Origin: Chrysomallon squamiferum
Lineage: Eukaryota > Animalia > Mollusca
DNA: 64,000 bases
Assembly (NCBI GenBank): GCA_012295275.1
Contig: CM022665.1
Span: 23,746,001-23,810,000, forward strand
Direction of reading: 5' to 3'
Below are positions 6,165-52,705 of the stretch, in pieces (the stretch's first letter is position 1; every line of letters begins with the position of its first letter). A program made the translations under genes and the position numbers. The notes beneath the pieces were generated by a model. The model was given only the letters and a program-made list of their open reading frames with translations, had not been told where the DNA came from and did not search any database.

Positions 6165-6204
<40 letters not shown>

Positions 6205-6621: not shown

Positions 6622-6693
<72 letters not shown>

Positions 6694-6722
6694 TCTCTCA
6701 CACACACACCCACACCCACACA

Positions 6723-6756
<34 letters not shown>

Positions 6757-9700: not shown

Positions 9701-9845
9701 GACATTTAACATTTGTAATAAAACATATTCCAATTTCATGTCATTTTAATCTTGTTAATCTAGCACTCTGTCTGAAACAGCTTATTTTGTTGGTCCCAAG
9801 TGAATCCACATTTTACAGAGTCCACTGTATCTATATCTATCTATC

Positions 9846-9877
<32 letters not shown>

Positions 9878-14359: not shown

Positions 14360-14419
<60 letters not shown>

Positions 14420-17400: not shown

Positions 17401-17782
17401 ACTGTTAATGCCAGTGACATTAACATTTAAATAACTTTAAACTTAAAACAAAAACATATCCAGATATTTTAATTACAAATTTATTCTTTCTGACAGAACT
17501 CTGTGCACACTGAAATATTAAATAAGAAATTTAAAAACACATCCAAACATTTATTTACACTAAATTACCTGAACTGGCCTGCAGTTGTCACTCAGAAGAG
17601 TGAATTGTGGATTTTGCCAAGCTTGGAAAAGAACTTCCATGTTGCAAATCTGTTCCTATTTGAAAAATAAGTAAACAAGCAAAATGAATGAATATTTGTA
17701 CGTTTAACAACATCTCAGCAAATTTTACATCAACTGTTTGATGTCATGCAGACTACGTTAATAAAACTGTTTATAAATCAGA

Positions 17783-17823
<41 letters not shown>

Positions 17824-18140
17824 TTATAAGAATGCTTAATAACACCTCATTACATTTTAGAGTTATCAGGACTTGTTTGTGTTGGTGAGAGAAAGTGTAA
17901 CAGTGAATGTTTTTCACTGGAGCAAACAAAATTAAATTTATCTAACGGAGAAACTGATCCGAGACAGAAAAAAAGTATTATTTTATCACAACAACACTAA
18001 CCATGCCACCGTTTGTCTGAGGACATTCCCCTAGTCCCTTTCCTTTGTTTACATCACTGTTTCTGCATGATGTCTCAACCAAATGTACAGTAAAATAGTA
18101 TTTCATTCCAGCTACAACCTGAAATAATCACAAAACAATG

Positions 18141-18175
<35 letters not shown>

Positions 18176-21100
18176 ATAGTGAAATATTTTATAAACTTGA
18201 AATTTATAGAAAAATAAATTGGTAGGTGTTCATTTTTCAGAACGAATTCTATTTTCATGTAACAAGCTGACTCGTTTGTGTTCTAATATAAATACAAACA
18301 AGAAAATAAATAAAATTTTACAAATATTTTATCTAAATATATTATGAATAAAATGACATATCATTTCAAATATTATATTTTTATTTGCTTTGTTTTAAAA
18401 ATTCAAAATGAGAAACATTAATAAGAAATGAATAAATTATTATTTTGAAAAACAAAAAAAAAACAAAAAAACACATGTTTTGATGTAATACCTGGTGATG
18501 AACATTGCTAACTGAATTGGCAGCTAATCGGAACAACGAATTGGACTTCGCATTAACTTCATCAACTGCAAATGCAACAGCTTTCTGGACTTCTTTAGTA
18601 AGGTGACCTGGTTCAACACCACCAAGAACATTTCTAACTTGTCGCTTCCTAGAAGCAGAACAACGCTTTTCAAGCAGGACATAACTGTCCAACCAGACCT
18701 GTGTCCAAAGCACAAGATGACATCTCTCTTGCTGAAAATGAAACAAAATTTATTTTATCTTTTACTTCAGAATAATTTCACTTGAATTCAAATAAATATA
18801 AAGGTAAAGGTAACTTAATTCCATGTAAAATTTAAACACAACAAAGCCAGACTTTAAATAAGGTTTAATTTTAATTTAATTAACATTATTGGGATGATTT
18901 TGGTTAGTTTTGGTTTCTGTTTTTTTTTTTTGTTGTTGTTGTTTTGTTTGTTTTTTGGGGTGGGAGGAAGTAAGGTTGTTTTTAAAGTTTTAATTTTTAT
19001 TCACATAGAATTACACAAAATAATACACTTGATGAATTAGTTTAATTATTTTATTGTTAAGAGCAGTGCATATTGTCTTCTGGTATATATACTATACCCT
19101 AATAATTGTCTGAAACCCAGATGATCAGTCAGTTAGAATGTAAGAATAACAATCATGAAACATTTCATATTCAACTTCTAATATCTTGATAGAAGCAGTA
19201 ACTTACCACATTCTCATTATGAACTACCAGATCAAAGAAGTACTTTATGCCAGATACAACCTGTAAAATAAATTTTAAGATTAGTTCAGACAGTAGCCCT
19301 TTGAAAATGTATTAATATTTATCTTCATCTAAATCCATAATTATATAAGACATACAAAAACATTTGTTTTGAAACCTTAAGCAACAGAAATACAGACATC
19401 ACTAATATGTAATTTACCATATATATTATGGAGTGACAAATTATTTTGTTTATTTTATCATGCAATTGTTACAAAATTTTTTTTTTTTAATAATAATAAT
19501 AATAATAAAAGGAAGAAAGGAAAAAAGAAAAAGGAAAATAAAGAAAATTGCAGTGGTTATGGATGCAGGTACAGCTATATGCCTCTGCCACATGTAATTA
19601 TCTTTCAGTGCTGTAAAATGATTTTTTGAAACCAAAATAAAAATATACCCTTTCCACAAAGGACAAAGTTAAAGCAAATTAATAATAATTCATTCATTTA
19701 CTAACCATTCAGATGAAACGGCTGAACAGAAAAACTGTGATTAAAATGTTTATCACCAATAACAACTTTAATGCATTAAATAATGATTAGCTTTAGTACA
19801 TTACAGAAATGATATATCATCTTCACCAAAACCAAAAATATTTGTAATTTGTATTTGTAATTTTTGAGAAGAAATACTATGAAAAAGACAATAAACGACT
19901 TGTTCTTTCGGTATATGTTAAAAACACACACAAAATAATTATGATAATTTTCTTTCATTGATCTTTAATCCTAATATTACTAGATACTAATGAATCCTTG
20001 AAATAAAAATAGATATGACCAGAGTTTCTATTTCCCTACCAATACTTCATTCTTATTTTTTTTTTCATTTTTTTTTTTTTTCCCCTTAAAGGTTCAATCC
20101 ACTTAATGACAATTACACTTTTATGAAATGCTGAAAATAAGCCACTAAGGTTAATTAATGATCTGCGCCTGTGATATTTAATGCACATTTATTAAACATT
20201 AAACAAAGGACAACATTATTTTTAACTGTCAAGTTCTTTGGAAAACAAAATATTAATTACTTCCTTTGTAACTAAACAACTGTTTTTAATTTTTCAGTCT
20301 GTTTTCAGTAACTGTTCCAAAAACAATCCTAACCCTCAGAATATAGAGTCTTCAATAGTTTATTATTCATGATCAACATGCTGTTACTAACTGCAACTGT
20401 TTTATATTGTACTGGGGTTTTCTTTAATGATCTTATCTGTATAGTAATGACCAATACAAAATTAACAGTTAATTAGACAAAAAAATAAAAAATAAAAATA
20501 ATAACCATAGCATCATTAATTTTGTCTTTCCTTGTTACTTGCTCTGTATTATATACTAGGTCACTGATTAGATTAAATTTCTTAAAATCAACTGGCTTTC
20601 ACATACACAAACGTCAGTATTTTCATAGATGGCCTGCTGCATTATAAAACAGCACAACATACAAAGACATCAAAAAACTTAGTCACCAGCCTTGTGGAAA
20701 TAAACATAAATTGTTGGTATCAGCACATCAATAAATGATTTTTTTTTCTGATTTCCAAATTCAATTCCCTGACCTTAAGTGTGAACCCTGTGAAGATACA
20801 GAAGTGATTATGACACTGAATAAACTATGGATTTAAAATAGTAACCTATATTGTGATAACAAGGTTACAAAGGTAATCCTTGTGATGATGATGTAACTAT
20901 GTGTATTTGTGTTTGTTCTACAGTGAAATCAAGATAGTGTATCAGACAGAATTTCATGATGTGCAGCTTTGTTTTAATTCAAATGAAACCGATTCAAAAA
21001 TGTATCCGATATGGAAAAATTAGTGAATTTACTACAAAACCATTTCCTGTTAACATAAAATAATAGTTAATATAATAATAATAATAATGAAACAATAATA

Positions 21101-21695
21101 TACTTTTATATATAAAGAAAAATATAAAATTTACTTTATTAAGTAGTGAAATTGCTCATGGAATAGTACATTAATCATCTGATGATACAAATTTATTTTA
21201 TCAATGTTTTTTAACACTAAGTATTTAAAAAAAACGTTGAATGAACACTACCTAAGTAAGCTGAAGGTCATGTTTAAATAAAACAACTAGTTACGTTATT
21301 TCAAATAATTGGGAAATAATATAAAAAAATAAAAATAATAACAATAAAATGAATAATTATTATAATATCTGTCAGTAAAATTAATTAACGTTACTAACAG
21401 TGTGAGTAACAACTTTTATCTCAGTTAATAATTCTCAATATTAATATGTACATATTTTTTTTTTGCAGTGTTTTAATCACGTTACATATTAAATTTAAAA
21501 ACATACTTGTGTTTTTGCTCTCTGTATGGTGACCAACTCTCTGTTAGTGTTCTCTTCTGAATTCAACACTGTCACTGCAATCTGAGCCATTTTCCGTATG
21601 TCTTTGCTTTGGACATTAGCGTTTACCGGCCCACCTACGAGTCCTCCCAAACCAAAAACTGTTGGTAAAAACACCAACAAAATTAAAATATTCAT
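5628..21695 (-). CDS. CTSF: Cathepsin F-like papain (C1A) cysteine protease with two N-terminal cystatin domains, 15 coding exons, 584 aa
   Basis: Exons 5'->3', all GT-AG and phase-consistent: 21695-21507, 19260-19207, 18731-18492, 18118-18002, 17655-17569, 13360-13147, 12388-12275, 11953-11802, 11493-11397, 8901-8821, 7923-7804, 7336-7272, 6978-6888, 6493-6435, 5702-5628 (1755 nt). Motifs: signal peptide [15 protein letters not shown]; cystatin QVVSG and QVVAG; ERFNAQ-type propeptide [20 protein letters not shown] followed by [16 protein letters not shown]; [25 protein letters not shown] (catalytic Cys); [11 protein letters not shown] (His); YWIIKNSWG (Asn). Confidence 0.95.
6624..6755. repeat. 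Compound (CT)n(CA)n microsatellite
   Basis: Directly visible in the sequence. Confidence 0.95.
12912..13125. repeat. Imperfect (GTA/GCA/ACA)n trinucleotide microsatellite in cathepsin F intron 6
   Basis: About 210 nt of gtagtagca-type triplets. It accounts for the poly-Thr and poly-Val ORF artefacts. Confidence 0.9.
13985..14240 (-). mobile_element. Highly decayed SINE copy in cathepsin F intron 5
   Basis: GC-richer patch with remnants GAGGAAGCTTGCTGCCAC and AACTAGTCACTGGGCAC. Similar remnants occur at 3066-3320. Confidence 0.3.
14330..14430. repeat. (ATT/GTT)n microsatellite
   Basis: Directly visible in the sequence. Confidence 0.9.
17216..17230 (-). CDS. Candidate alternative terminal exon of cathepsin F (VRGE-stop), giving a 233-aa cystatin-only isoform
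   Basis: Minus strand reads ttttaaacag|GTT CGT GGT GAA TGA, about 340 nt after the phase-0 donor of exon 5. AATAAA-like signals lie downstream near 16980-16965. The same exon is present in the duplicate at 35309-35323. Confidence 0.5.
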   Translation of the reverse strand, partial: VRGE

Positions 21696-21751
21696 CTTTC
21701 CTCTTGTTAGTACCAACTGTTTGGCAAATGAAACACGGAAGCTACTCCATT

Positions 21752-21832: not shown

Positions 21833-22418
21833 ATTTCTTTCGATTGCGTTATTGTCTTATCTTAACTACAGGTTGGGTTTAAAGATAAAAAAAACAACAA
21901 CTACAGGTTGGGTTCAAACACGATTTTGGTGTCTCTTGATCTGATATAGAGCTTATATTATATAGGGAACACAGAGAAAAAAAATAGTGCCTCGATATGA
22001 AATCACAGTAGTTTACAGGAGTAGAATACACTTAACATTCAGAAAAATATGACAATGTTAGAATTTTTAATCCTCCACAAAATACCAAATCATCAGAAGT
22101 GTTCTACATGATAATAATATTATTTAAATAAATATCAGTATTGTGCGCAAATGTCTAGAATCTTGCTTGAATTATCAGTGATGAAATAACAGTAAATGAA
22201 AGTATAGAAGATTTAAATCTATTAGCTATCAGAGATGCCAACTTAACTCAAGTGTAATGCTTTTTCTGAGTACTGTTGTCAACGAATTACCCTTTTTGTC
22301 ATGAAAGGAATAATCCTCCAACGAAAGTTTGGAGAGCGTCTTCTATTGTTTGTTTTAAATCTTAGGAACGTGTATGTCTTTATTTTTCTCATTTTATCGT
22401 TTAAATAGCTGTTATTTA

Positions 22419-22450
<32 letters not shown>

Positions 22451-23162
22451 TTATTATTTGTAATGATCATTACTATTTGCATTGGCCATTTTGAGAAAAT
22501 GACTACACTGATCTTAAAAATTAAATATCAGCCAAGTGCAGAGAAGTATTTTACGCTTTAATGTCTACAAAGTAAAATACATGCGCCAGTAACAAATGCA
22601 TTTCTCACTATCATAAAATCGCTATAATTTTTCCTATGTTATTAATCGTTAAATATATATATGAAAAACAAAATGAAAAAAAAAAAAACACTGCTTTTCA
22701 TAAAATCATACACAATAGTTTAAAAATGCACAGACTTCAAGCATTTAACATGTAGATGCTGCCAGTGTATTACATATTCGGAAAAAAGCTTTTTCCATTC
22801 ATTTCCTTCAACTTGATTAATTTTTATTTTTTTGTGTCAGGAGAATTTTTATTTTTATTTAATTACTTTTTTTTAAATGAAAACCTGTACAATAATTCAC
22901 AGACTCATAAGAAGATGATACGCTGTCATGTTTGCGTGAAATGGCACAATTCTTAGCAAAAACTAAAATAAAATTGAAAAAATCGCTTGGATCAAAACAA
23001 AGACAAACAGTGCATAGGAAAGAGGAAAAGTTGCTATTTATTGTGGTACACATTACGTGCTCCTTGTATCAAAAACAGTATTTGTCCCGAACTGAGCAAA
23101 TCTTGCAATTTTCAGCTGATTCAGGTCTTGTCGGCAGCTGCTCAGCGAGGGCTGCAGTACAA

Positions 23163-23366
23163 AAGGCGTCGACAATCCTTGCCCCGCGAAGGATTTTAGT
23201 CCGGCCCGCCAACTGAACACCTGGACCCCAATTATTACATTAACTTCTTTTCTTTTTTTCTTTTTTTCCCATAAACCTGCAGGCCAAAGCAGCCTTGTTT
23301 CCTAGCATCATTTTTTTGGTGCTCAATACTGAAGAAAAAAGACAGAGAGAGAGAGAGATCGGTTTT

Positions 23367-23413
<47 letters not shown>

Positions 23414-23482
23414 GTTTGATATCGTGGCCCTCCTCCAAAACACTGCATAGCTCCCCTCTCTCCAAAAGGTTGCCGACCCCTC
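23163..23482. mobile_element. Degenerate hAT/Charlie-like MITE
   Basis: Right end AAAAGGTTGCCGACCCCT, decayed left end AAGGCGTCGACAA, and an internal CCGGCCCGC motif typical of such elements. No recognisable TSD. Confidence 0.5.
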
Positions 23483-24235
23483 CTCTATAATATATCAGTC
23501 CGGCCTCATATGACAGAAATGGTGGTTGCGAGTCACCAACAAACTTCATCCTCATGACAGTAGCTGTCTCCTACAAACAGATCTGACTACTGCCAGAGAT
23601 GAGTGGTTATCATTATTCGGCATGTTTCTCGTAAACACAGCTACCACTCTGCGATCATTGCTAAGCTTTACACTGAACTTGTGTGACGTCACACCTCTTT
23701 TCATAAAATTTGGTAATTTGTTGATGATTTTTCAGTGAAGAACAAAACGTACCATCAGTTATTGTTAATATAAGAAAACACGTGGGCTTCATCTGTATAA
23801 ATAAAAGCGAATGTGTGTTTTTCAGTATTTGCCTATGTTTGCAAAAATATTCTGACTAAAACGTCTTAAACGACGATGAAGATGACGTTGGTTTTGACAC
23901 AGCATCCACATCGACGGTGTTCATCACCTGGACCTCGGCCATCCAAAAACTTTCGTTAATCAGCTTATGTTGATTTAACAACTTAACCTGTTTCGTTAAA
24001 TGATGTCATTATTATGTCGTTATGCAAATAATACTGTTGCATTCAACAAAGACAAAATCTATCTTAATCCTACTCTCACAGTCAGCTCTATGCTAGATGC
24101 TGAAGAGGTGATAATGGAAGCATTTTTTTTTTTATGCAAGAATATTGTTGCCTTACAGTGATTTCATATTGACTGTGATTGTTATATTTTGAAACTTTTA
24201 TTGTTTACTTATTAAATTCATTTTTTTTTTCATCA

Positions 24236-24290
<55 letters not shown>

Positions 24291-25294
24291 CTTAGTCATA
24301 GGAATAGCAGGCTCAAATAGTGCGGCTTTTAAGCTTGTATACATTTAAAAAGTTATATGGGAAGTACAAAGCAAAAGATAAAAATAATTTTCATGATCCT
24401 TGCTGTTTAGCAGTTATTATACAGCAGTACCATAGATTAATAATATCCTTGAATATAGGTGTAAGGGAGATAATTAGGTTTCAACTATGAAAACCAAAGC
24501 GTTTGAAATAATCTAATCATAACTTATTATAAATCATCTAGTACACAGACAGGGAAAATAGGCAAGTGTTACGAATTTTTGTTTTATTGCTGGTTCAGAT
24601 TTTTTTTAAATAACCCAGTATCATATCGACCAATGTTCCTTTATCATTTACAAGTATTTGTACGCGTGACAGGCAGTCCACTAAGCAAGTGAAAAGGAAA
24701 TTTGATAGTTGGTTTTTAACGAAATGAGGCCAGTGGAGCCTTATTTTAAGGCTTAATACTGTCGCATTATTTTATTATTTATTTTATTCTTTTTTTTTTT
24801 TTCTTTTTTTTTCTCCAGTTTATGTTCATATGTTATGAACTACGTCTATCACTGTTGCAAGTGTTTTACGGTGTATTTCATCAGTATTCTAGTAGTGTTA
24901 CTAGTCTTTTAAAAAACAAGGAACATTGCTGACTATAACTGGCGATTGTATCACAGGCTGATAATTATGATCAGTAATATAAATATGAGAATGAAAAATT
25001 GGTTGATCTGACATGCAGAACTGAACTTAGAATAGTTAATTTTTGTTTTCTTTTTTAAAGTAGCATAAAAAATAAGAAGAACAAGAACAAATAAAATTAT
25101 AGCAAAATACTGAGGATAGACCTAAACTGCAAGATAACTGAAGAAGACGTTGAAAACCAAAATCTGGTTATCCACACTTAAGAGGTCTGATCGACCGACC
25201 CAGCTATCTAAAGCGTGTACGTTGATACTTGATTATTGACAATAACAATCAAGACTATAATTAATTATTTATGTGCTGAACTTGCTAGCCCATT

Positions 25295-25341
<47 letters not shown>

Positions 25342-25862
25342 TAATACATAAATAAATAATTTTTCCAAAAATAAAATAATTTCAGTAATACACGATAGAC
25401 TGCTATCCTACGAACAAAATCCATTTTAATTGTGAACTTGATTACCAAAATAATAATTAAAATGGATTTTAACCATAGGATAACAGTCTATCGTGTATCA
25501 ATGAAATTATTTTATTTTAGGAAAAATTATTTATTTATTTATTTATTTATTATTATTAAAAATGCAAATATAAATATATGCATACATCTTAATACACATA
25601 TAAATACTGATTTACAGTGAACGGACGATATCCACTTTACAGTCATCACCGACAGACGTAAAATGTCAAACCACGTTTAAGATAATTTTAAAGCAAAATT
25701 ATTAACTATAAATATTTTACTTGAAACACGGTGCACATTACGAAAAATAAATTTTATTGCGCAAAGCCTTCGGGGCTACAAGGTAAATGCGGCCTGTGAT
25801 TAATTACCTTTCACAAAATTCATCTCAAATAAAAAATAATAAAAAATAAAAATAAATAAATA

Positions 25863-25905
<43 letters not shown>

Positions 25906-26029
25906 CAATAATAAATAGCGTAAAGATAACAAAGAAGAAAAAAGAAAGAAAGAATGAAGGAAAGAAATTTGTCATAATGATGATATGAGGAAACCACTGT
26001 TGACAGTTTATGGATTATCTTAATTTCTA

Positions 26030-26150
26030 GCAGTAAAGAATATTTTATCTCTATCCTCCCTATGTCAGGAACGAGAAGTAACTCAAGTGATCCAGCGGAA
26101 AGGATGGATCCTGCGACCAACCACTCTACGAAAACTCGCAAACGCCTTTC
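26030..26150 (-). mobile_element. Decayed SINE 5' part (tRNA-like head)
   Basis: Minus strand GTGGTTGGTCGCAGGATCCATCC...CTTCTCGTTCC contains a B-box-like sequence. Recognised from memory only. Confidence 0.35.
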
Positions 26151-28071
26151 ATTATTTTATATAATAACATACGAAACATAGAAATGAGATTTAGAAAATC
26201 ACTGCAAAGTAGCCTTATCAGTTAAATTCTCTTTTATTTTTGTTATTTTGTTGTTGTTGTTTGTTTGTTTTGGTTTTTTCACCTTCCTATTTATATAATG
26301 ATATCACAATAAAATGTGAAATATCAGTCTCTATACACCCTTACTAAATTGTTATATTACTATTGAACTTTATTTTTAACAAAGGTTGATCGTATCTAAT
26401 AACTATTAAGAAATCATTTGAAAGTGCACAGAATGTATTCAGGCAATTTATTCGTATCAACAAAAGTAGACCGTAACATTTAGCTTTTAACTACCTCGTC
26501 AGTCATGACGACAGCATGCACTCAAGTTGTGACAACAGACGAAATGTCTTAGGGTAAGGTACTGTCTGCAGTTTTAAAGACATCATCTTTGGGCGCACAT
26601 TCGTCAGAGATGAGTCTGGTGATATTTATTTAAACTGCTCAATAAGGGTAAAATGAAGTATTTCGTCACACTAACACACACAGACAAAGTAAATGTTTTA
26701 GAAATGTCTGTAATTTTATTGCTGTTGTAATAGTGCCATGCATGTTTATTATGATGGTGGAGCTACAGCTGTTGTAGAAAAGAGCATCAAATGAGTTATA
26801 GCGTACAAACCAGAGATGGATGCACGTGTATATGTATGTGTGGTTAGGTGCATGTATCTGTGTGTCTATGCATGCAAGTATGTCAATATGTGCGAATTAA
26901 TGTATCACTGGCCTTAAGTGCGTTAAACCTTTGTAATTCGTTTCCTTTTCATTAGTTAATTATATTTTAAATAGCCTGTGAGCGAAGAAAACAAATTAAG
27001 TCTGAGTTCATATTAACATTCACGACAGTGTAGAAATCTGATACTACCAAAACCTGTAAACCTTCTTTTGATTTATAGTTTAATATGATGAACTGACATA
27101 ACAAACTGCAATCCTGTTTACATCGATAGTAATTAGGTTGGTGTCAAAATACAGAAACATGTTTATGAATATTTCGTTGTCAGGACTTGCTATATTACTG
27201 TACAATTACAAACAATTTATTTATTTTATTTTATTTTATTTTATTTTATTTTATTTTATTTTATTTTATTTTATTTTATTTATTCGCTTGCTTGCTTGCT
27301 TGCTTACTCGTTTGTTCGTTTGTTTCTTTATTACCTTTATTTATTTTTATATTTTTTTATGTATATGTGGCAAGGTATTACATAATATCATTTTCATTAT
27401 TTATTTCATTAACTCTATTTTTAAATAATAAGAAAATTACTGAAGAAAAATAATTTTTGAAATAGAATAATACCAATTTTCATTTTTAGGGCTTATAAAA
27501 GCTTAAAAAAAATTTTAAAAAAATAAGGTACATGTAGTCGGAAAAGTAGTTTAGAAAATAATCCTGACGTGGTAACAGTTTCTTGTGTACGTAACATCTG
27601 ATTATTATTATTTTATTTATTATTATTATATACTGTATTATTTATTTATTTATAAACAGTATTAACTACAGCTGTTGTGATTTGTTTAGTTATGATCTTT
27701 ATCTAACAAAAAATTTTTTTTTTTTAAAAAAATGAAATACGTGCAGTTATTTATATATCAATATGTACAATCTGTTTAATACATATTTAAATGAGATTAA
27801 CATTTCTGATATTAAACATTTTACTAAACTAAATCTAAAACATAGAAATATTTTCATATAATTGTTAAATACTGACTTAAACCAGTAAATGGTTATGTCT
27901 TAATGAACACAATATTGAATGAAATACGTAAACTGCTAATAAAAATTATAAGACATGCATATTTCAAGGGTAAAAGTGCGTTCGGTTATTTGCTAATGTT
28001 AAATCTATCATCGCTTCTTCAACAATGAAATCGGTGTTGGCTTCTCTCTTACATTTAGTTTTTCATGAATG

Positions 28072-28140
28072 TTCCTGTCTGTGGGAAGGTGCATATAAAA
28101 ATGAATGTGCATGCTAATAGAAAAATGTAGGCGGTTTCGC
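28072..28140 (+). mobile_element. Central fragment of a tRNA-derived SINE
   Basis: CCTGTCTGTGGGAAGGTGCATATAAAA...TGCTAATAGAAAAATGTAG resembles the central domain of gastropod SINEs as I recall them. Not verified by search. Confidence 0.4.
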
Positions 28141-28304
28141 GTGACGTGTATAATATTATGTATAAGCGTTAATGCAGTTTGTGTATGAAGAGCCAACGAC
28201 AGAAAATTAGTTAACAGTTTCTAATAATTTGAAACAAAACAAAATTGTACGTCGAATGAAGACGAACTTCCCGGACGTTGAGTCTTCCGAAGGTGTAAAT
28301 CATC

Positions 28305-28344
<40 letters not shown>

Positions 28345-29839
28345 TTTGTAATAATTGTTTTGTTTCTCTCATTTGTATACGTTTATACACCCTCCACTTA
28401 ATTCTTATTCTACACAATTTAATATTTAAGGAACAGATTTTTAAATATGTAATTAGTTTGTATGAATTCTGAATATACTGAATAACTCTTTAGTAGCCAT
28501 TAGTTAAACCCAGTACACAGTGACGTTGGTGATAAAAGAATAATTGCTCAGAAATCGCTTATTCGAAGACCGTTATCGTTATCTTAGAAAAGGTGCGAGT
28601 GTGAGTAATGTAGCAGACGTTTATTTCCACGTACTTGTAAGCAATTGTCCAGAGTTCATTACGAAAATAACCTTTTCAGTGCAATTTTTATATAACTAAG
28701 ATCACCAACGACGCAAATTTCAGTTTCACTTATATTTTAGTTTTTATTATTATTATTATTAATGACATTGTTAATCATGACATCAAATAGCCGTGCAAAT
28801 AGAAATGATAACAAGAATTTTATTAAGCTTTTCGTAGTTTCCTCTGTTAAAATTACCTTATTAATTTATGCTAATACTGGACAACATTTCAGAGACGAAA
28901 AAGCAGATTAGTTCGCTGGTTAGGACATGAGGTCGATGGTTGACAGTCTCTGAAGTCAAAAGTTAACAAATAAACTAATTATCAACCACAAAGTTGTTAT
29001 TAGCAATAAGAATTCGTTTGACACATTATGTCATGGGTATTACAAATAAATAATATACAATAAATTTTTAAAATATATATTTACAATAACATCGGCCCAA
29101 ACCCTCTGGTTAAATCTGTGTGTCCTTCCGTTTGTCTGTCTGTTTGTTAATTTTTATAATTACGTTAGTGCAACACACTATCAATTTAAAAGTAGCATAA
29201 TAATTGTATTCAGACTTCAGCAGTACATTAACTGTTTCCATAATTCGGTTCCATGGCCCTTAAATCTAAGAGTTTCCCATTTCGATGAACTTTACATAGA
29301 GGAAAAAGCCTACAATGCGCAAGCGCCTGCTTAGTCAAAGACAGTAGTCTGAAAACAGCAGAGACCAATATGAACAGAGTAAAACAAAACTAACTGGGGA
29401 GTCAAAGAAGAAATAACACTAAAAGTAAATAAAATACACACAGGCGCCTATATTTCACTGATTAAAAAAAAAAAAAAAAAAAACTGCCTTGCAGACCATG
29501 TAAACCAATCGGATCTTTCTACTTCTCGAGACATTCATAATTCGGCAAAATGGAACTATAGAACAGAGGATCTTCTACGTCCCGGGCCAACACCAGATCG
29601 ATGCTTCTTTATGCAGGATAGAACATTATTATCAAGTCATCTTTGTCAGCATGATGGGCACCATTTAGTGCGCAGGCTGAACCATCATCTGTCCAACCGG
29701 ATTCCCAACCTTGTCTGTATTTCGACACCCTTGTGAGAGAGACTAGAATCTTGTGCTTCCACAAATTTGCTGCCATGTTGTTTTCTTTTAAGTGAAAATA
29801 CATTTATAGCAGAAGGGTCCAATTCGATAATAAAGAATT

Positions 29840-29871
<32 letters not shown>

Positions 29872-30305
29872 AAAGACACTAGTTTCATCTTTTATACTCA
29901 GATCACAGAGTCACATCTTACGACAGTTATTAATAAAATATCGTAAGGTGTAGATGAAGAAGAAAAAATATTTAAAAGAATAAGAAAAATATAAAGAAGA
30001 CAGGAACGACAGAAGTTCATATTCTACTGAAATCAAACTGGCCGAATTACAAATTCCCTCATTGTTTTTTTTTTTTTTTTTTTCTCCATATGCATTCTAA
30101 TCCTGTACATTGTATGTAATGCCTAACACCCATCCAAGCCCTACATACTGTGCGGGTGGTCCCTGTATAAAATATCAGATTAATAATCGACGTTTATAAC
30201 AGAGGTCGAGTCTGCAGAATCCTGTGTTTTGACTTTATGTCTAGTATAAACCAATAAAATAACTGAGACAAATATGCCAGGAGTTACCTTTTTGAAACTT
30301 ATCAA

Positions 30306-30354
30306 CCAATCATTGGTTTGTGTTCATTACAGTAGAGACGGAACAGTATATAAA
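30306..30354 (+). promoter_or_regulatory. Promoter of the duplicated cystatin gene
   Basis: Same CCAATCATTGG dyad (30306-30316) and a TATATAAA box (30347-30354) upstream of the ATG at 30441. The surrounding sequence has diverged from the parent promoter. Confidence 0.5.
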
Positions 30355-30440
30355 AAACAACAACAGCAGCGATGTTTCATTTGGGAAAGAGGTTACTCAT
30401 TATTTTATTTTATTTTTAGTCAATAGCGAAAACAAAAAAT

Positions 30441-30670
30441 ATGAAGGTTTTTATAATTTTGGTATTTTTACCAGCTGTTTCGGGAAGCCTGGGTGGATTA
30501 ATAAATGCTGATGTGAAAAGCAAAATAGTACAGAAAATGGCTAAAATTGCAGTGGCAGAGTTGAATTCGAAAGAAAATACCAACAGAAGACTAGTATCAG
30601 TAGTGTCAGCCAAGACAAAAGTTTGTATTAATTCTAATTTGTAACGTGATGAAAAAAAAAGTGTAAAAAC

Positions 30671-30701
<31 letters not shown>

Positions 30702-33585
30702 TTACATGTTTACAGAAATGGTATCTTAATAAATTCACTACACTTTGCAATATACCACACAAGTTTTTATTTACAGGCTTCGAACGCGTTTTGGAGTCTT
30801 GGAAAGTTTTGCAAATTCGTCGTAGTGTTTTCCAGGTCCTTAAAAGTTTTGGAAAATCAGGTTTTGTTACCTTGGTTATGGAAAAGTAAAGGAAAATTAT
30901 GTCCTTGCCGCAAATAAAATGTACGAAAATCTGGTTTGTTTCACCAATATTTAGCATCTACTCAAGCCCCGTTTTAGCCAATGTGATGAGGTGCCGGTAT
31001 AGCCTAGCCAAAGAAAATAGTTCCGTTTTGGTAATGCTTCCATTTTAGCCCATTTTAGCCAGATCACGAAAGTTTAGCTCAGGCTATCTGCACAGGCGCG
31101 GGATGCGCATATTGCTAAAAAAAAAATATATATATATATATTTCGTTTCTTGTATTCCAATTTTTTAAATCTGTTTATTAGCAACAGGTACTTGTTGTGA
31201 TAGCGTTAAGTGGTCGCTGTAATTGATTGGTTCACTCCCACTTAGCCTAAAACTTTAAAAATCTGTCTCCCACATAGCCAAAATGATGTTGGGATACCTG
31301 GGTCAGTTGACATTTCCAAGCTTTTGAACAAGATGAAGAAGAGAAAAATATAAGAAAAAGAAGTATCGTGACATTGAAAACAAACTTCAAAATCTGTTTT
31401 CAACAAGGACACGTGCCAGTTCAGGACTATGCCGATGCAGCTTCATTCTACTTTAACTTTTGAATTGTTTCAATGCACATGTTTGAGAACCTCTTCACCG
31501 CTGTTAGTGGATGAAAGAATGAATAAATCATTTGTGTTGGTGTCGAAATGAAGGTGTTTCCAGGTGTTTTATACACTATTTGAAATTGAAAATAAAATTC
31601 ATGTATAACTAATAAAGCGCACCGTTATATAAACTGCCCTCTGATATATATATATAGTCTGAAAAATGTAAACCCAACACAACAATAAATCCAGCTGAAA
31701 TCTTTTAATACACCAAACATTTTAATTTTTAACATTGTATTAAATATAGTGATCAGCTAAAATGGCGCAAGTGAAAACCCGCTGGGTTTATTCCCAATTT
31801 ACAGCAATACGTCACATTAATGACGTCATTGTAGTACACACAGATATAAATAAACATTACCCCGTTGCTTTGTCTGTGTGTTGTGGAGGGGATCTTCGAG
31901 CGTTACCTTATATTTTGTATAGTTTAGCATTAGGGATCTAGGTGGGTGTTTAAGTTTGACAAAAATAACATTGTGTAATATTTGACCGGCGCCTTGATGT
32001 TAGGTTTATTTTTGAGTTTAGGGTTAGGGTTTAGAGCGATGAAAAGAGGGGGAAACGTCTCAGTGTATTGAATTAGTGACAAAGTAAGCACAGTTAGGAA
32101 AAGAGACGTGTCCACTCAAAGAATAAAACTGCATTTTAAAACGCCAAAATAAATTATTTTAATTTTGTTTTTCCTTTATTACTAGTAATACTACATGTAT
32201 GCCATGCAGCTTAGTCAAGGCAAAAGTTTTAAATCTGACAAACGTGTTAAAACTGGAGAAAAAAAACAAACAAATACAAAACACTTTGTGGTAATTGAGT
32301 TTGCTTGGAAATTTGGATTTATAGGCTATGGAAAATTTTGGAAAAATTATGGAAATTTTGACAGCCAAAGGTGTACAAACCCTGTATTTACAAAGGTCAA
32401 ATCCATTTGACTGTTTTGTGAGATCAGTTTCATTTGATTTAAAACAAAGCTGCATATCACGAAAGTCTATCTGATACTCTATCTTGATTTCACTGTAGGA
32501 AAAGCACAAATAGTTAAGTCATCACCACAAGGATTAACTTGGTTATCACAGATCAGGTGACAGTTTTAAATCAACAGATTATTTAGTGCCAGATATTTTA
32601 GTCTTATGATTATTATTATTATTATTATTATTTTTCTCTTTTTTTTTTTTTTTTTCTTTTATTTCAGTTTCTTTTTATCTTTTATATTTTAGCTTTTTAC
32701 TAAGACCAAAATATTTAAAAATTTAAAAAACAAAAAAAAAAAAACCTAATTATCCATTGCACAAACATGCTGAAACATTATTTTTGACATTATTTTGTTT
32801 ACTTCTTTATTCTGAAGAAGTTTGCGCAGGGAAGACCAATGTTATCAATTTTAGAAGCGATATTCTTCGTGTCGGCAATTATTATTATTATTTTTTAAAT
32901 ATAAACAGCGAGCGCTGCTAGTTTCGTATAGTTTTGCACCGACAGATCCGTGCCCAGGGCAAAGGGGAAATAGTCTCCGTTTCAAACAGTTTATTCAGTA
33001 ATTTTGTTAATCAGTAATAAATTTAAATCGTAAGTTGGTTTCAGTTATTTGCACTTAAAACGTAAGAAATCACTCATTTCTGTTTGACAGTGATTGTGAC
33101 TAGCCACTTATTTCCAGTTTGCTGCATAAATATTATTAAAAGTTTTTTTGATTTTTTTAAAGTTGTCAAAGATGTGCATTAACAAGTTTTAAGTGTTTTG
33201 GAACAGTTAGTGAAAACAGTTGTTAATTAATATGTACTAAATAATCAAAAACATTTTTCGATACTAATTTATTTATTTATTTATTTTTTTATGTTTCAAC
33301 AATTTTCAAAGAATTAATGTCAGAACTGATCTTTACCATTCTTTTACAGACTGTTTCTGGGACGAATTACTACTTTGAAGTCATCGTACGCAATGGCGAC
33401 AGTGTAAGCTGCTAGTCATTTTAAAAACTGCATTTATCAAGATACTGAATATTAATAATGTAATGGTACATTAAGCTGAATGTTTTGTGAATAATCCCGC
33501 TCTTATCGACTGATTATCTGGGTTTCAATTATTAACGTACAGTATCTGATGTATCAGATACTACCACTGCTACTATTACTACGTG

Positions 33586-33620
<35 letters not shown>

Positions 33621-35323
33621 ATAATAATAATAATCATAATCATAATAATAATATTAATTATTATTATTATTATTATTGTTATTATTATTATTTTTGTTGT
33701 TATTGTTATTATTATTATTATTAAGCTTAAATTTTACATGAAATTCAGTTAGATTTAAATAAATTAAATTCACGTGGATATTTATATATATATATAAACT
33801 AATTTAAGGTTCGTTTTATTTCCAGGAAGAAAAATGTAATCTTGAACTTTGGTCTCAACCTTGGTTAAACAAGATTACACTTACCAAAAGTAGCTGCGAA
33901 TATACTGACGACTGTGTTAAGAAAAGGAGTGTTCATGAATCAGATGATTTCATTGAAAATATCCAGAAAGCAGTTGATTTTTCAGTTGATGCTCTTAATA
34001 AGAAATCCATTTCAGCAAACCGATTAGTTGCCAATTTACTGACCAGTGTTCATCACCAGGTATTATATCAAAGACGTTTCTTTTTGTCCTTCTTTCTTAA
34101 AATAATGCTTTAAGATTCAGTTAACATTGCTAATCATTAAATCAAAATAGATGATAAGACAGAGATAAATTTCAGAATCATTAATGTTTTAAATGATATA
34201 TTCGTTTTGGCCATAATATATTGACTAATGTTAGATATCAAATATTTGTAAAATTTTAAAAATGGATTTTTTGTTTTGTTGTGTTTTGTATTATATTAGA
34301 ATGCGAAGCAGTCAGCTTATTATATTAAAATAGAATTCGTTCTGAAAATTGAACACATGCCAATTTATTTTGCTATAAATTTCAAGTGTTCAAAATGTTC
34401 CACTTTAGTAAATTTTATATATATATATATTGTGATTTAGTCTATAGCTGGATTGAGGTACACTTTTACTGTACATCTGGTTGAGACATCATGCAGAAAT
34501 AGTGATGCAAACAAAGGAAAGGGACTAGGGGAATGTCCTCAGACAAACGGTGGCATGGTTAGTGTTGTTGTGATAAAATAATACTTTTTTTCTGTCTCGG
34601 ATCAATTCCTCCATTACATAAATTTAATTTTGTTTGATAACTCTAAAATGTAATTATTAAGCATTCTTATAGTTAAACACACACACACACCTGAAATGTA
34701 ATTAGGTGTTATTAATCATTCTTATAATTAAACACACACATACACACCCACACACATTTGATTTATAAACAGTTTTATTAACGTAGTCTGTATGACATCA
34801 AACAGTTGATGTAAAATTTGCTGAGATGTTGTTAAACGTACAAATATTCATTCATTTTGCTTGTTTACTTATTTTTCAAACAGAAACAGATTTGCGAAAT
34901 GGAGGTTATTTTCCATTCTTGGAAACTTCCACATTACACTCTTCTGAGTGACAACTGCAGGCCAGTTCAGGTAATTTAGTGTAAATAAATGTTTGGATGT
35001 ATTTTTAAATTTCTTATTTAATATTTCAGTGTGCACAGAGTTCTGTCAGTAAGAATAAATTTGTAATTAAAATATTTGGATATGTTTTTGTTTTAAGTTT
35101 AAAGTTATTTAAATGTTAATGTCACTGGCATTAACAGTGACCTCAGGTTAATAAGATAATTCACTATTAGACAAAAAATATAGAAATGATAACACTAATT
35201 GCTTGCATAAGAATAATGATTTTATTTTTATTTATTCTGCTCTAGAATAACTAATTTTAGAAGTTCATTAACATTTAATTATGTGCACACTTAAAGCATT
35301 TTAAACAGGTTCGTGGTGAATGA
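30441..35323 (+). CDS. Secreted two-domain cystatin-like protein (228 aa), derived from an inverted partial duplication of cathepsin F
   Basis: Exons 30441-30620 (MKVFIILVFLPAVSGSLGG...SAKTK), 33350-33403 (TVSGTNYYFEVIVRNGDS), 33826-34059 (EEKCNLELWSQPWLNK...VHHQ), 34441-34557 ([18 protein letters not shown]...GGM), 34884-34970 (KQICEMEVIFHSWKLPHY...PVQ), and probable last exon 35309-35323 (VRGE*). All introns are GT-AG and phase 0, with no internal stops. Exon sizes 180/54/234/117/87 match the parent's 189/54/240/117/87, and the cysteines are kept. AATAAA occurs near 35515 and 35534. Confidence 0.8.
30774..32384. mobile_element. Old TA-flanked TIR element (MITE-like), probably with nested insertions, in intron 1 of the cystatin duplicate
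   Basis: Reads TA|CAGGCTTCGAACGC ... GTGTACAAACCCTG|TA (imperfect 14-bp TIR). Multiple TGGAAAA subterminal repeats at both ends (30800-30900 and 32305-32360). Confidence 0.55.
33560..33722. repeat. Compound (CTA)n(ATA)n(ATT)n microsatellite
   Basis: Directly visible; intronic. Confidence 0.9.
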
Positions 35324-35370
35324 GGATAACTTCATCTGGAAGTCAAAGATTGTTAGTTTGGTCATTTAAT
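34465..35370. repeat. Near-identical inverted repeat arm matching about 18095-17170
   Basis: Reverse complement of the parent from exon 4 into intron 5. About 3 differences in the ~340 nt after exon 5; indels around the (CA)n tract. Confidence 0.9.
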
Positions 35371-35552
35371 TTTTTTTTTTTTTTTTTTTTATATTTTTAC
35401 AGTGAACTCTGTGTGTTTGGGCAGTTAGCATGTGTCATCGATGATAGTAACAGCTTCACTGAGAGAGTTTTTTTTATTTATTTCTCTTCTTACATGTCTA
35501 AATTACTTATGATAAATAAATTAACATATTAAGAATAAAATAATTTTGACCT

Positions 35553-35554
<2 letters not shown>

Positions 35555-35621
<67 letters not shown>
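35555..35621. repeat. (CT)n microsatellite
   Basis: Directly visible in the sequence. Confidence 0.95.
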
Positions 35622-40141: not shown

Positions 40142-41049
40142 TTAAATTTCATAGATTTTGTAAAGATTTAAATTTATTTTGTTGTTTCAGAGCTTGTTGA
40201 CTGTGACAAGTTGGATGAAGGATGTGGTGGAGGACTGCCGTCCAATGCTTACAAAGCCATCATGAAATTAGGTGAAAAATCACAAAACCTCACAATTTGA
40301 AAATGTTTCTTTTTTCATAACACTCAGTGAGCTCTTTTAAATAGCATACAGAGTTTAATAAATATAAATCAGTGTGAATAGTCATTGTAGTTAAAAAGTA
40401 TTTTACAAAACATTTATCCATTTATGTTTGAATTGTTATGTATACACAGTTATGTCTTTGTGAACAGGCACTGAAATTAAAAAGTATTTTGTAAAATATT
40501 TATCTGTGTGTGTTATGTATACACAATTATATCTTTTGCTGTGTTTGTTATGAATTGTTATATATAGTTATTTTTTATGAATTGCTGGTGGGCTGAAGTA
40601 TTTTATGTGAAAGTGAGATTATTCATTTAACCGTGTTTTTTTAATTGTTACATTTACATATTTACTTGTTTTGTACAATGAAATGATTATAAAAAGAAAT
40701 AACTTCTGTCTACAAAATAATAAAAAATAAAAAGATATCAAAAAGGAAAATGTGATGACAAATTTTTTTAGAAATGGGTATTAAGTTGTTTTGATTAACA
40801 AGATTATGTGAGAGTGTTTGGCAGATATTCTGATTATGACATTATTATTTGATAATCTATCCAGATGTATGTAATTTTTCATTGCTATTTGTCTTTCAAA
40901 AAAGATCTTGTCTATTTAATTCTGTAGTAAAATCATCATCTTGTATCTCTGCAGTCCACATCACAAAAACTCAGAATGGCTCTTGATTAAGAAGTCTGCA
41001 GTTAATTTCTCATTTCAGCATTTCATTATTATTATTATTATTTTATTTT

Positions 41050-41085
<36 letters not shown>

Positions 41086-41500
41086 TTTTTTTTTTTTCAG
41101 TCATTTGTTTGTTTGTTTATTGATTTTTTGTGTGTTTGCTAGGCCAGTCAGTTGGTGGTATTTTAATTAAAATCTGAGAGAAGTGACGTACATGTGTTCA
41201 CTGTTTGTAGGAGGACTGGAGTCTGAGAAGGCCTACAGCTACGAGGGAGAGGATGAGAAGTGTACTTTCAACAGGACCAAAGTTGTCGTGAAGATCAATG
41301 GAGCCCTAAATATCTCCAGCAATGAGAAAGGTAAAATACTGTTTTAGTTTGCTTGGTTAAAATGTTTTGTGATGCTCTGTTTAATCAGAAATAATCTTAT
41401 TTGTGTCTATACTTGTTGTTTTTTTTGTTTTTTGTTTTTTCTCAGAAGCTGGTTTCATTTTTTGTTAATTTAAATGTGATTCAGCAATGATAATTTTATT
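40142..41500. repeat. Near-identical inverted repeat arm matching about 8950-7635
   Basis: Reverse complement of the parent region covering exon 10, intron 10 and exon 11. Only scattered substitutions and microsatellite length differences are visible. Confidence 0.9.
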
Positions 41501-41963
41501 TTTAGTTAATACATTAATAGGCAGTATAAAAAATAGTTTATAAATTAAAATCTACATTTTCAATTTATAAAGTCTACCTGATAAACTTGTATATAACATG
41601 GTATTATGTAATGTAATATTGAACACTTTTTGAATTTGCGTATTATTCAACTTTATTGTTGTTTCAGCTGTTGATAAATATATTTTTTAGATTTTTTACA
41701 GAGCTCAAAAACTGACGTTTTGATATGTAAAAACTGTTGTGTACAAAAATATGTCTGACATTAACAAGTGAATCAAATAGGATATCACCATTTTTATAAT
41801 TTTTGTGTTGATGTTGGTTTTGGGGATGTCATTTCATTATTTGGGATTTTTTGAATTTTTTTTTTTCTGTTGTTATGTTTTTAATATCATTTCTGCCGAA
41901 CATTTTAAATTTTAGCAGTTTTATATGGGAGGATTTTCATATCCTGGGAAAATTGTCCACAAC
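40191..41963 (+). pseudogene. Orphan protease-domain exons of the cathepsin F duplicate
   Basis: 40191-40271 ([21 protein letters not shown]...) and 41211-41330 ([11 protein letters not shown]...) are identical to parent exons 10 and 11. 41919-41963 is a decayed exon 13 (FYMGGFSYPGKIVHN vs [15 protein letters not shown]) that ends before the catalytic His. I found no counterparts of exons 6-9, 12, 14 or 15. Confidence 0.85.
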
Positions 41964-42527: not shown

Positions 42528-44643
42528 AAACAAAAAATATAAAAAATAAATAAAAAATAAAAAATAATATATAATAAAGTTAATCTGTTATTTAAAAATA
42601 AAATAACTGCAGTGCCAACATTTGTGTTAAGGGAGAGCACTGCTAGATAAAATGTACTGCATGGCGTGACAGATTTTTCTTGACTATTTATGGAGTACCA
42701 TAGTCCGAGTACATCATCTATTCACTTTTTCTTCTATTTTCAGAGCTACTCAAGAGTAGGGATTAAATATTGCTGTGAGCAATTGATAGAATCGAAGAAC
42801 CATTGTTATTCAGTTCTTCCAGATCAAATGTTTGATTATAATCTCTACTTACTAATGAACATTCTACATTAGTTACCTGCATTAAATAGTTATTTTATAA
42901 TCCATTCATTTCAGTTGTTTGATTTGAAATAACAGGTTTTCTTCACTAAATCTACTTTGTACTTTTCTTTAAGATTTTAACAATCTCTTAATTTTTCTTT
43001 ACTATTTGTAATTTAAAGAGTGGTCTTTTATTTATTATTTACAGAATTTATTAGATTACTATCATTAAAAAATACTATTCCTTCAATTGCTAGATCATTC
43101 GTATTACAAATATTATTCTTTAAATTGCTAACCAATTCAAATTACAAACTGAAGGCTTTATTTTCAGAATCAGGATGCATCTTATAATACACAGCAGAAC
43201 CAACTGTATTTTACTAGTATACCACAATTTAATCAGTACGAATAAAAATATTATGATAAATGTATTGTATGTTTGTTTTTAACAATAGTCATCTTAAAGT
43301 AACAAAATAAAGGTAAACTTCTGCAAATTTGAAACATATTGTTTATAACAAAAGCCATGTTATAATCTCACTAATAACTGGAGTAACAAGTATGCAGTGG
43401 AAGATTAAACTGAAGAGATAACTGAAAGTCAATCAAGTTTCTGTAAATATTTATTCATATTTTTCAAAGAACCAAAATGGTGATGACAACACAGGCCTAC
43501 AACAAAGTAATCTCACCCGCATCTTTTGAACAAGATTTTTTCTAATCCTTTCAGTGAATCCAAATGAATTATTATTCTTCATTTTTCTGAATTTCCTTCT
43601 TTTATATGGCAGGCAAGATAATTATTTGTGCAGAACAAACATTTACTTTTACAGTGAAAAAAAAAAAAAAAAAAATGAAAATGTACATATGTGATCATGA
43701 ATACAGTGAAAACTAATTACACAAAAAATTCATTAATGTAAATTTGAGTTATATACCTCAAATAAAATTCTATTCTACATTTTGTCTGTAGTTGGTACAG
43801 GTTCATCTTGTAAATGGTAAAAAGTCAACATTTCACATATACAGAGCATAAACACTATCTGATCGTCTTCCTAAAAAAAAGTGTATCAAAACATTTTCTA
43901 ACTTTTGGATGCTGAATTACATCTCCTATTTCTACACTGAGCAGATATTTTCTATGTTTGTGGTACAGGCTGTTGCAAAGAAATAAAAACTTGGTTTAAA
44001 GTTTAAGGAATTTTTATCCTACTTCATTTCCATTTTTTTTTAAAATGCTACATTTTCACCGTCTTCATTACATGTTAATAAATAAACAACAGGTATCATT
44101 TGTGGTTTTTGATTTAAGCATATTTCAGCATTTCTAGATCAATGTTACATACAACAGAGTTCAAAATGGAAATTTTATGGCTAAAGTTTAATCATTTAAA
44201 AAAAAAAAAAAATTCCTGTTTAAGGCATCTTCTGTAAAGAATATGCTTCTGATTATGTGTGATTAAAATTTTTGAATATATCAGATAGAGCATCTTGGGA
44301 GCTAGGTTAGAAAAATAATCATTTTTACCAAAATGTTAAGACATAAAAATATTTACATAAAGTCTATACGAGATAAACTGAAGACAGTGTCTTAAAAACA
44401 AGACGAAAAACATTGCGGATATACTTCCTAACTGTTTAGAAATTACATACAAAGATTATACACCAATGAACAATAAAAAACAGAAAACAAAAAACGAAAT
44501 ACACCACAGAAATACATCTCGAATTGTTATAAACTCGATAAAAAGACACGGATTACTCTACATATGAAAAAACAGTATGACAAATGCTGCAAAATCAATA
44601 TTAACACGTAAGCTTGCACCCAAGTATAAAGTTCAGTCTGCGT

Positions 44644-46762: not shown

Positions 46763-46803
<41 letters not shown>

Positions 46804-52674: not shown

Positions 52675-52705
<31 letters not shown>

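Follow-up and report, generated by a model that had tools for sequence, protein, structure and literature searches.

A probable two-domain cystatin gene left by an inverted duplication of cathepsin F in Chrysomallon squamiferum

Cystatin-only multidomain proteins and cathepsin F zymogens with several cystatin domains are already known. Cathepsin F zymogens carry one N-terminal cystatin-like domain in vertebrates (PMC7549167) and four in a hemipteran (PMC12653315), and their I29 propeptide is marked by the motifs ERFNAQ and E/DxGTA (PMC7549167). Cystatin-only multicystatins of 2-8 domains occur beside multicystatin-C1A proteins in arthropods (Daphnia pulex, Rhodnius prolixus; PMC3407033), multidomain cystatins have independent, repeated origins that include lophotrochozoans (PMC2784779), and the MEROPS I29 propeptide-like inhibitors include mouse CTLA-2 alpha, Drosophila crammer and Bombyx BCPI (PMC4089206). 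Here we describe a gene at 30441..35323 of a 64,000-nucleotide (nt) window of DNA from the mollusc Chrysomallon squamiferum (GenBank assembly GCA_012295275.1, contig CM022665.1, 23,746,001 to 23,810,000 of the forward strand), which lies head to head with a complete cathepsin F gene. It is probably a functional gene for a two-domain cystatin that stands alone and is expressed at a low level, formed by inverted duplication of the whole cathepsin F gene and subsequent loss of the protease exons, and its likely product is a secreted inhibitor of C1A peptidases. Positions are those of the window throughout, and exons of the copy are primed.

An earlier interpretation of this DNA, made without database searches and called here the sequence-only reading, had taken such a gene to be new. 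Its novelty is lower than was assumed, given the cystatin-only multicystatins already in print (PMC3407033), and the main interest of the locus is that its origin is legible. A literature search, with most subscription journals outside its scope, turned up no cystatin gene described as originating from a duplicated cathepsin F.

The inverted pair and the exon structure of the copy

Comparison of the window with itself by blastn revealed an inverted pair, with matches such as 21471-21699 to 30655-30437 (70%) and 17083-18589 to 35477-33962 (82%). Ten colinear inverted matches in total connect 4847-21699 with 43412-30437, and the two genes face away from each other across an ATG-to-ATG gap of 8.7 kilobases (kb). 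The parent was modelled from splice sites and reading frames:

5628..21695, minus strand: parent cathepsin F gene, spliced model of 15 coding exons and 584 codons with a single terminal stop
21695-21507, 19260-19207, 18731-18492, 18118-18002 and 17655-17569, minus strand: parent exons 1-5, of 189, 54, 240, 117 and 87 nt

The modelled parent product has a signal peptide, two cystatin domains (LGG...QVVSG...VW in domain 1, LGG...QVVAG...AW in domain 2), a linker, an I29-type propeptide (EQGTA) and a peptidase domain with Cys, His and Asn, including IKNSWG. Among 107 open reading frames (ORFs) scanned against Pfam in 1-22500, Cystatin was matched in 4, Inhibitor_I29 in 1 and Peptidase_C1 in 6. 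A protein-database query with parent exon 8 (50 amino acids) gave 10 matches from 31 candidates, and the best named relative among these 10 is P0002, a 560-residue protein of the freshwater mussel Sinanodonta woodiana (43.6% identity over residues 4-510), which has the architecture of the parent, carries PF00031 and served as outgroup. The copy comprises the following parts:

30141..30440, plus strand: upstream region of the copy (promoter, 5' leader), with homology to the 300 nt that precede the parent ATG
30441..30620, plus strand: exon 1', running from the start codon through a predicted signal peptide (MKVFIILVFLPAVSG) and the N-terminal half of cystatin domain 1 (with LGG) to a GT donor
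33350..33403, plus strand: exon 2', encoding the first of the domain 1 hairpins (KTVSG; QVVSG in the parent), AG/GT borders, Pfam Cystatin at E 0.013
33826..34059, plus strand: exon 3', in which domain 1 ends (PW, cysteine pair), followed by a linker that has one additional cysteine and by the helix of domain 2
34441..34557, plus strand: exon 4', first hairpin of domain 2 (QSIAG), two cysteines
34884..34970, plus strand: exon 5', second hairpin of domain 2 (SW), last cysteine pair; an island of divergence within a near-identical tract
35309..35323, plus strand: candidate terminal coding piece, VRGE and an in-frame stop, preceded by AG

Joined together, exons 1'-5' form an open frame of 224 codons with AG/GT borders throughout and every exon ending in phase 0; addition of 35309-35323 gives 228 amino acids followed by a stop. 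Exon lengths are 180, 54, 234, 117 and 87 nt, and the two that depart from the parent do so by 9 and 6 nt. Amino-acid identity to the parent is 35/60, 7/18, 33/74, 33/39 and 20/29 in exons 1 to 5, or 128 of 220 aligned residues overall. Self-blastn and the exon model thus bear out what the sequence-only reading had proposed for this region, namely an inverted plus-strand copy of exons 1-5, head to head with the parent at 8.7 kb, in which five exons stay open with splice sites and phase kept despite divergence, and in which length differences (180 against 189, 234 against 240) are multiples of 3. Its claim that the cysteines are kept also holds, since all six of the parent cystatin region are present in the copy, together with a seventh.

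The 3' end of the coding region can be drawn in three ways: reading through the exon 5' donor adds VI and a stop, the 35309 piece adds VRGE and a stop, and splicing to the orphan exon 10' described below adds 24 out-of-frame residues and a stop. Both cystatin domains are complete in all three. AATAAA hexamers are found at 35515 and 35534. All 65 of 65 bases around 35309 are identical to parent intron 5 (17255-17191), and as this acceptor lies inside an identical tract of the kind left by conversion, nothing marks the 35309 piece as an exon. In parent intron 5, too, an AG-preceded VRGE-stop piece (17230-17216, minus strand) and an AATAAA follow the exon 5 donor; the parent could therefore yield a cystatin-only short isoform. 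In this tract RNA of parent and copy is indistinguishable.

The sequence-only reading was wrong in calling the duplication partial. The outermost of the inverted matches lies beyond the parent stop codon, and homology continues upstream of the coding region: the 300 nt before the two ATGs align globally with a score of 164.5, against 104 +/- 10 in 200 shuffles (maximum 139.5), and 150-nt blocks within -300 give z values of 2.6 and 3.1. In the same block alignment there is no signal of upstream homology past about -450. Three short blocks are common to both promoters, CCAATCATTGGTTT (30306-30319), a TATAAA-type box and GTGTTTCATTTG, which we take to represent CCAAT and TATA boxes. Inverted homology from about -300 to past the stop codon indicates that the whole gene was copied with its core promoter and that the protease exons were lost later. 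What is left of them lies downstream of the cystatin exons:

40191..40271, plus strand: orphan exon 10', an exact string match to parent exon 10, Pfam Peptidase_C1 positions 53-80
41211..41330, plus strand: orphan exon 11', an exact string match to parent exon 11, within a 97-100% identical tract (40182-41561)
41919..41963, plus strand: remnant of exon 13', in which a 43-nt deletion takes the His-coding part and tblastn matches exon residues 1-15 only
43293..43412, plus strand: outermost detected piece of the inverted arm, 76% over 122 nt by blastn (E 1.8e-16) to parent 4847-4967, past the parent stop

On the copy side tblastn detected no remnant of parent exons 6-9, 12, 14 and 15, exons 6 and 7 giving low-complexity hits only. 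Among 47 copy-side ORFs, Pfam Cystatin is found in 3 and Peptidase_C1 in the two orphan exons only (profile positions 53-124 survive), and none of the 47 matches Inhibitor_I29. It had been proposed that the propeptide and catalytic exons are gone or destroyed, and this is the case: exons 9 (Cys) and 14 (Asn) have left no remnant and the His codon is deleted. With neither an I29 propeptide nor the Cys/His/Asn catalytic set that define cathepsin F, the copy cannot be a peptidase. The predicted frameshift on splicing exon 5' to exon 10' was likewise correct, as the exon 10 acceptor is in phase 1 and the joined frame ends after 24 residues.

Conversion, constraint and transcription

Identity between the two arms, computed in 60-column steps, is a mosaic that ranges from ~65% to 100%. 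It is ~65-70% over 33700-34340, 70-95% from there to 34777, and 97-100% over 34778-35377 and 40182-41561, a pattern that suggests an old duplication with recurrent gene conversion between the inverted arms. The tract that surrounds exon 5' is the following:

34778..35377, plus strand: near-identical tract, 97-100% identical to parent 17761-17162 except in exon 5'

Mismatches number 12 over the 87 nt of exon 5' and 6 over 513 nt of flanking sequence (Fisher p 3.8e-7). The divergence of this island (12 in 54 nt, 22%) is the same as that of the adjacent unconverted intron (18-26%), and those amino-acid changes in exons 4-5 that can be polarised (n=7) split into 4 on the copy and 3 on the parent branch; the island may therefore be a patch missed by conversion, either by chance or through selection against converted alleles. 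A burst of change in exon 5' of the copy after conversion was considered and rejected in view of this 4/3 split and of the intron-like divergence, an unconverted patch accounting for the island equally well. A further patch of 180 nt (37054-37233 and 15854-16033, 93-97% identical) lies deep in intron 5 of both arms between ~1.5 kb flanks that cannot be aligned; it represents one more conversion tract or else a repeat element common to the two arms.

Selection was assessed in the unconverted stratum, exons 1-3, with 152 aligned codons. Pairwise non-synonymous divergence (dN) is 0.38-0.41 and synonymous divergence (dS) 0.93-1.0, and their ratio (omega) is ~0.41; bootstrapping gives 0.40 (0.22-0.64), with values of at least 1 in 0 of 500 replicates. 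The dN/dS comparison with the parent, a check proposed in the sequence-only reading, supports constraint. Because a pairwise omega averages both branches, the mussel protein P0002 was used to polarise changes. In 218 ungapped columns 18 changes fall on the copy and 16 on the parent branch (14 and 13 in exons 1-3 alone), and 18 or fewer of 34 would have a probability of 0.004 if the copy had evolved three times faster. In a simulation of neutral substitution with intron base composition (3000 runs), the share in which exons 1-3 acquired no stop was 1.5% at 0.2 substitutions per site, falling to 0.1% at 0.47. Among gap events in the alignable introns 3 of 13 are multiples of 3, as against the coding differences of 9 and 6 nt. 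Codon-position bias in exons 1-3 is weak, the first, second and third positions having 55, 40 and 64 mismatches (p 0.06). Taken together, the copy appears to have been under long-term purifying selection like that on the cystatin region of the parent.

Four sequencing runs, X1 to X4, were compared as contigs over 33760-34672. Three are RNA runs from one study, two of which contain 0.20 and 0.14 of sampled words and the third none; X3, whose kind is not stated, contains 0.88. X1 yields a 390-nt RNA contig (depth 8.8) that begins with 58 letters before 33826, the last 30 of them being the end of exon 2', continues through 33826-34057 with 0 differences, and is joined over 381 nt (GT..AG) to 34439-34538; when the cut at 34057/34439 is shifted 2 to the right, this is the 34059/34441 junction. 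A 202-nt contig from X2 (depth 3.1) starts 7 letters before 33826 and covers the copy to 34020 with 0 differences, and neither X1 nor X2 has any depth in intron 3' (34070-34379). As exon 3' differs from the parent at 86 of 234 aligned bases, both contigs represent spliced RNA of the copy. In the region compared, two of the junctions put forward by the sequence-only reading, 33403/33826 and 34059/34441, are seen in the X1 contig exactly as predicted.

Contigs of parent type occur in the three RNA runs at depths of 2531, 1903 and 2743; they share 34509-34558 and then run into parent exon 5. From these depths the parent is far more abundant in the libraries. X3 has no contig over exon 3', holes in contig cover proving nothing. 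At position 34500 the X1 RNA contig has C and the assembly T, a synonymous difference (AAT to AAC) in which C is the parent base, and a copy-specific base 9 nt further on is retained; C at this position reflects either polymorphism or a short conversion tract that still segregates among individuals.

The predicted protein and alternative readings

The N-terminus of the copy (MKVFIILVFLPAVSG) looks like a signal peptide, the mean hydropathy of residues 3-13 being 3.18, and from what is known of the family the protein would be secreted. SLGGL follows directly after the predicted signal peptide. Against Pfam Cystatin the exon 1' ORF scores 29.6 bits, above the cut-off of 22.2 (E 8.4e-7), and its best match among solved structures is potato multicystatin 4lzi (E 2.9e-4). 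The exon 3' ORF reaches 19.5 bits, below the cut-off, domain 2 being scored in pieces; residues 3-25 of exon 3' align to residues 96-118 of cystatin C, and residues 37-64 to residues 14-41, the N-terminal helix. As a whole, residues 1-224 of the spliced copy match residues 1-230 of P0002 (E 3.5e-19).

The tryptophan of the second hairpin is present in both domains, as QPW in domain 1, aligned to VPW of cystatin C, and as SW in domain 2. The first hairpin of domain 2 reads QSIAG, with Q and G of the QxVxG motif (as quoted in PMC3361287) kept and I in place of V, where parent and outgroup both have QVVAG. Cysteines 82 and 102 in domain 1 align to the last pair of cystatin C, and four more lie in domain 2 at 174, 188, 199 and 220, their pairing being presumed. 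The seventh, at residue 108 in the inter-domain linker (CEYTDDC, exon 3'), is found in neither the parent nor the mussel outgroup and, if unpaired, could give rise to a dimer or a mixed disulfide.

Longer proteins matching exon 3' were sought in a protein database for copy and parent alike, with none at E <=0.01 (33 and 99 word-sharing candidates, respectively); as parent exon 3 is unmatched too, this reflects a taxon missing from the collection, not novelty of the copy. When residues 1-235 of P0002 were looked up in the ESM Atlas, the top match, with 198 shared features and a score of 0.91, was a cluster of 57 proteins, mostly from molluscs and labelled "Cystatin domain-containing", with a representative of 223 amino acids. 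Two-domain cystatins that stand alone and have about this length may be frequent among molluscs, although the cluster could also consist of fragments. Exon 3' alone gave a best score of 0.84 and no family, and is uninformative.

In the history we propose, the whole cathepsin F gene and its promoter would have been duplicated head to head long ago, and the copy would then have lost its protease-coding exons. Promoter, signal peptide and cystatin exons would have been retained under constraint while the arms exchanged sequence by conversion, and the product, with a signal peptide and two cystatin domains, would act as a secreted inhibitor of papain-type (C1A) peptidases. By analogy with other members of the family it would bind the active-site cleft of such peptidases through an N-terminal trunk and two hairpins. 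This tripartite wedge would be partly kept, by QSIAG, SW and four cysteines in domain 2 and by LGG and PW in domain 1; since each domain keeps part of the canonical wedge, inhibition is likely as far as it can be judged from the sequence.

Several observations weigh against a functional inhibitor gene, and many of them would fit a transcribed pseudogene, that is, a decaying copy that lost constraint recently, was patched by conversion, and whose RNA is noise or a decay target. The exons for the protease are missing or damaged. RNA shows no more than two of the five or six junctions, and the depth of the copy contigs (8.8 in X1, 3.1 in X2) is ~300-600x below that of the parent, contig depth being a poor measure. 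X4 has no copy contig over the region compared, where again holes in contig cover prove nothing. Splicing of exon 5' to exons 10' and 11' would put a stop before a further junction and make the transcript a possible decay target, which would fit the low depth. In exons 4-5 dN is 0.128 and dS ~0.10 (omega ~1.3; 15 non-synonymous and 4 synonymous codon changes). Of the neutral runs, 49% leave the entire 672-nt frame open at 0.02 substitutions per site and 17% do so at 0.05, so that a recent loss of constraint is compatible with it. If the outgroup is left aside, no more than 80% of bootstraps put dN below dS/2, and the outgroup itself is single and distant, all three sequences differing in 58 of 218 columns. 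Motifs are eroded in the copy specifically: QxVxG of domain 1 is KTVSG, without the Gln (QVVSG in the parent, QVVAG in the outgroup), and the parent NVLGGV segment is deleted from domain 2, which removes its N-terminal LGG. The exon 4' ORF has no Pfam Cystatin match at E <=0.05, where the parent exon 4 ORF scores 23.2 bits.

We nevertheless regard a pseudogene, the main rival, as the less likely reading. The 97-100% conversion tracts that could have patched a decaying copy extend from exon 4' to intron 5' and over exons 10'-11', whereas exons 1'-3' lie in the unconverted stratum (~65%, dS ~0.93) and hence beyond repair by conversion. They nonetheless contain no stop or frameshift, which neutral simulation yields in 0.1-1.5% of runs, and both omega (0.40) and the near-equal branches (14 and 13 changes) argue for constraint there. 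All splice sites and the core promoter blocks are kept, and splicing is exact at the two junctions seen. The view of the sequence-only reading that the copy is more than a pseudogene is accordingly favoured by a frame that is rarely open under neutrality, by constraint and by spliced RNA, and is disfavoured by omega in exons 4-5; an annotation as "truncated cathepsin F pseudogene" would probably be wrong. Its further claim of a functional new inhibitor-type gene stands in so far as the copy is transcribed, spliced at two junctions and constrained, and falls short in that the duplication was not partial and that KTVSG and the lost LGG weaken the case for an inhibitor.

Changes in exons 4-5 gather in the enzyme-contacting hairpins of domain 2, with QVVAGMKYY becoming QSIAGLRYT and the second hairpin IFHSWKLPHY. 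Exon 4' departs from the parent at 6 of its 39 residues, five of these differences falling within the first eight codons, and exon 5' has 9 non-synonymous and 1 synonymous codon changes. Positive selection in these exons is tempered by the 4/3 split of polarised changes and by an island divergence equal to that of nearby intron. A narrower and doubtful version of the preferred reading would make the inhibitor, set promoter to promoter with the parent gene and still homogenised with it, a dedicated regulator of the parent enzyme, with selection shielding the domain 2 hairpins from conversion and the pair diverging in spite of it; the grounds for it are the excess of mismatches in exon 5' over the remainder of the 600-nt tract and the position of 5 of the 6 exon 4' changes in or beside QxVxG.

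It is quite improbable that the gene is functional without being an inhibitor, its cystatin fold being reused for binding, transport or defence. KTVSG in domain 1, the absence of the N-terminal Gly segment from domain 2, the unpaired Cys 108 and the gathering of changes in loops that contact the enzyme would agree with such a role, and according to PMC11171618 only two of the three cystatin domains of kininogen inhibit. In domain 2, on the other hand, Q..AG, the Trp of the hairpin and four cysteines persist, as do LGG and PW in domain 1, and the gene both adjoins and derives from a C1A zymogen with canonical domains (QVVSG, QVVAG). The conserved Gly of the N-terminal trunk has a role in cystatin function. 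An assembly artefact or haplotype duplicate, with the inverted arm not as drawn, is very improbable: the arrangement of the arms is known from the assembly alone, and X3, which may be the assembly's own source, has 0.88 of sampled words but no contig over exon 3', yet exons 1'-3' differ from the parent at ~35% of bases and so are not a collapsed or duplicated haplotype, and RNA contigs of a different study are identical to exon 3' over 232 and 195 nt, which together establish the locus, though not its orientation or distance from the parent.

Setting of the locus and known systems

The window is AT-rich eukaryotic DNA with long introns, its G+C content being 26-35% in 2-kb steps. Between the two promoters lies a spacer:

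21996..30140, no strand: inter-promoter spacer of ~8 kb, no inverted homology detected

At word size 7, blastn of the spacer gave short chance-level matches only, and none of its ORFs of at least 55 amino acids has a Pfam match above the family cut-off; the sequence at 24598-24771 has a sub-threshold match to HHH_7 (20.1 bits, cut-off 27). Beyond the outer end of the inverted arm, which its 3' side faces, there is a probable neighbouring gene:

46600-53571, minus strand: probable gene with ORF matches to SAP (53383-53571, E 3e-13) and AAA_33 (48785-48985, E 3.5e-9; 46600-46821, E 2.6e-7)

A SAP domain with a P-loop kinase-like domain is presumably the layout of hnRNP U-type proteins. Two microsatellites lie within the copy, a TAC/TAA/TAT array of ~165 nt in intron 2' (33559-33723) and (TC)33 at 35555-35621, just after the candidate terminal piece; AT-rich trinucleotide arrays of a similar kind recur over the window.

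If the preferred reading is right, the locus shows stepwise how a protease zymogen gene can yield a gene for an inhibitor of its own class, and the inhibitor and the adjacent cathepsin F would form a concrete pair for asking whether zymogen cystatin domains truly inhibit. Among known systems, cathepsin F zymogens such as the parent and P0002, each with two cystatin domains, are homologous along the whole copy, whose exon structure is that of parent exons 1-5; the copy differs from them in having no I29 propeptide and no exons for the catalytic Cys, His and Asn. Vertebrate kininogens and plant multicystatin (4lzi) resemble it in having tandem family-2 cystatin domains in one secreted chain, as is predicted for the copy, but unlike the copy they have no link to a protease gene.

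Propeptide-like inhibitors of the I29 type arose by gene duplication. They too are stand-alone inhibitors that resemble a non-catalytic prodomain of a papain-type zymogen (PMC4089206). The likeness is one of route only. The prodomain they resemble is the alpha-helical I29 propeptide of cathepsin L, which is the portion that the copy no longer has, its cystatin domains being what remains.

The arthropod multicystatins are similar in having several family-2-type cystatin domains and no peptidase, and in occurring in animals that also have cathepsin F-type zymogens with such domains. The closest named relative of the parent here is a mussel protein, not one from an arthropod. PMC3407033 reports architectures and no origin for these proteins; in C. 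squamiferum the parent is a neighbour at 8.7 kb and traces of the lost peptidase exons can still be made out, and the same route may explain the cystatin-only multicystatins that occur beside multicystatin-C1A proteins in other invertebrates.

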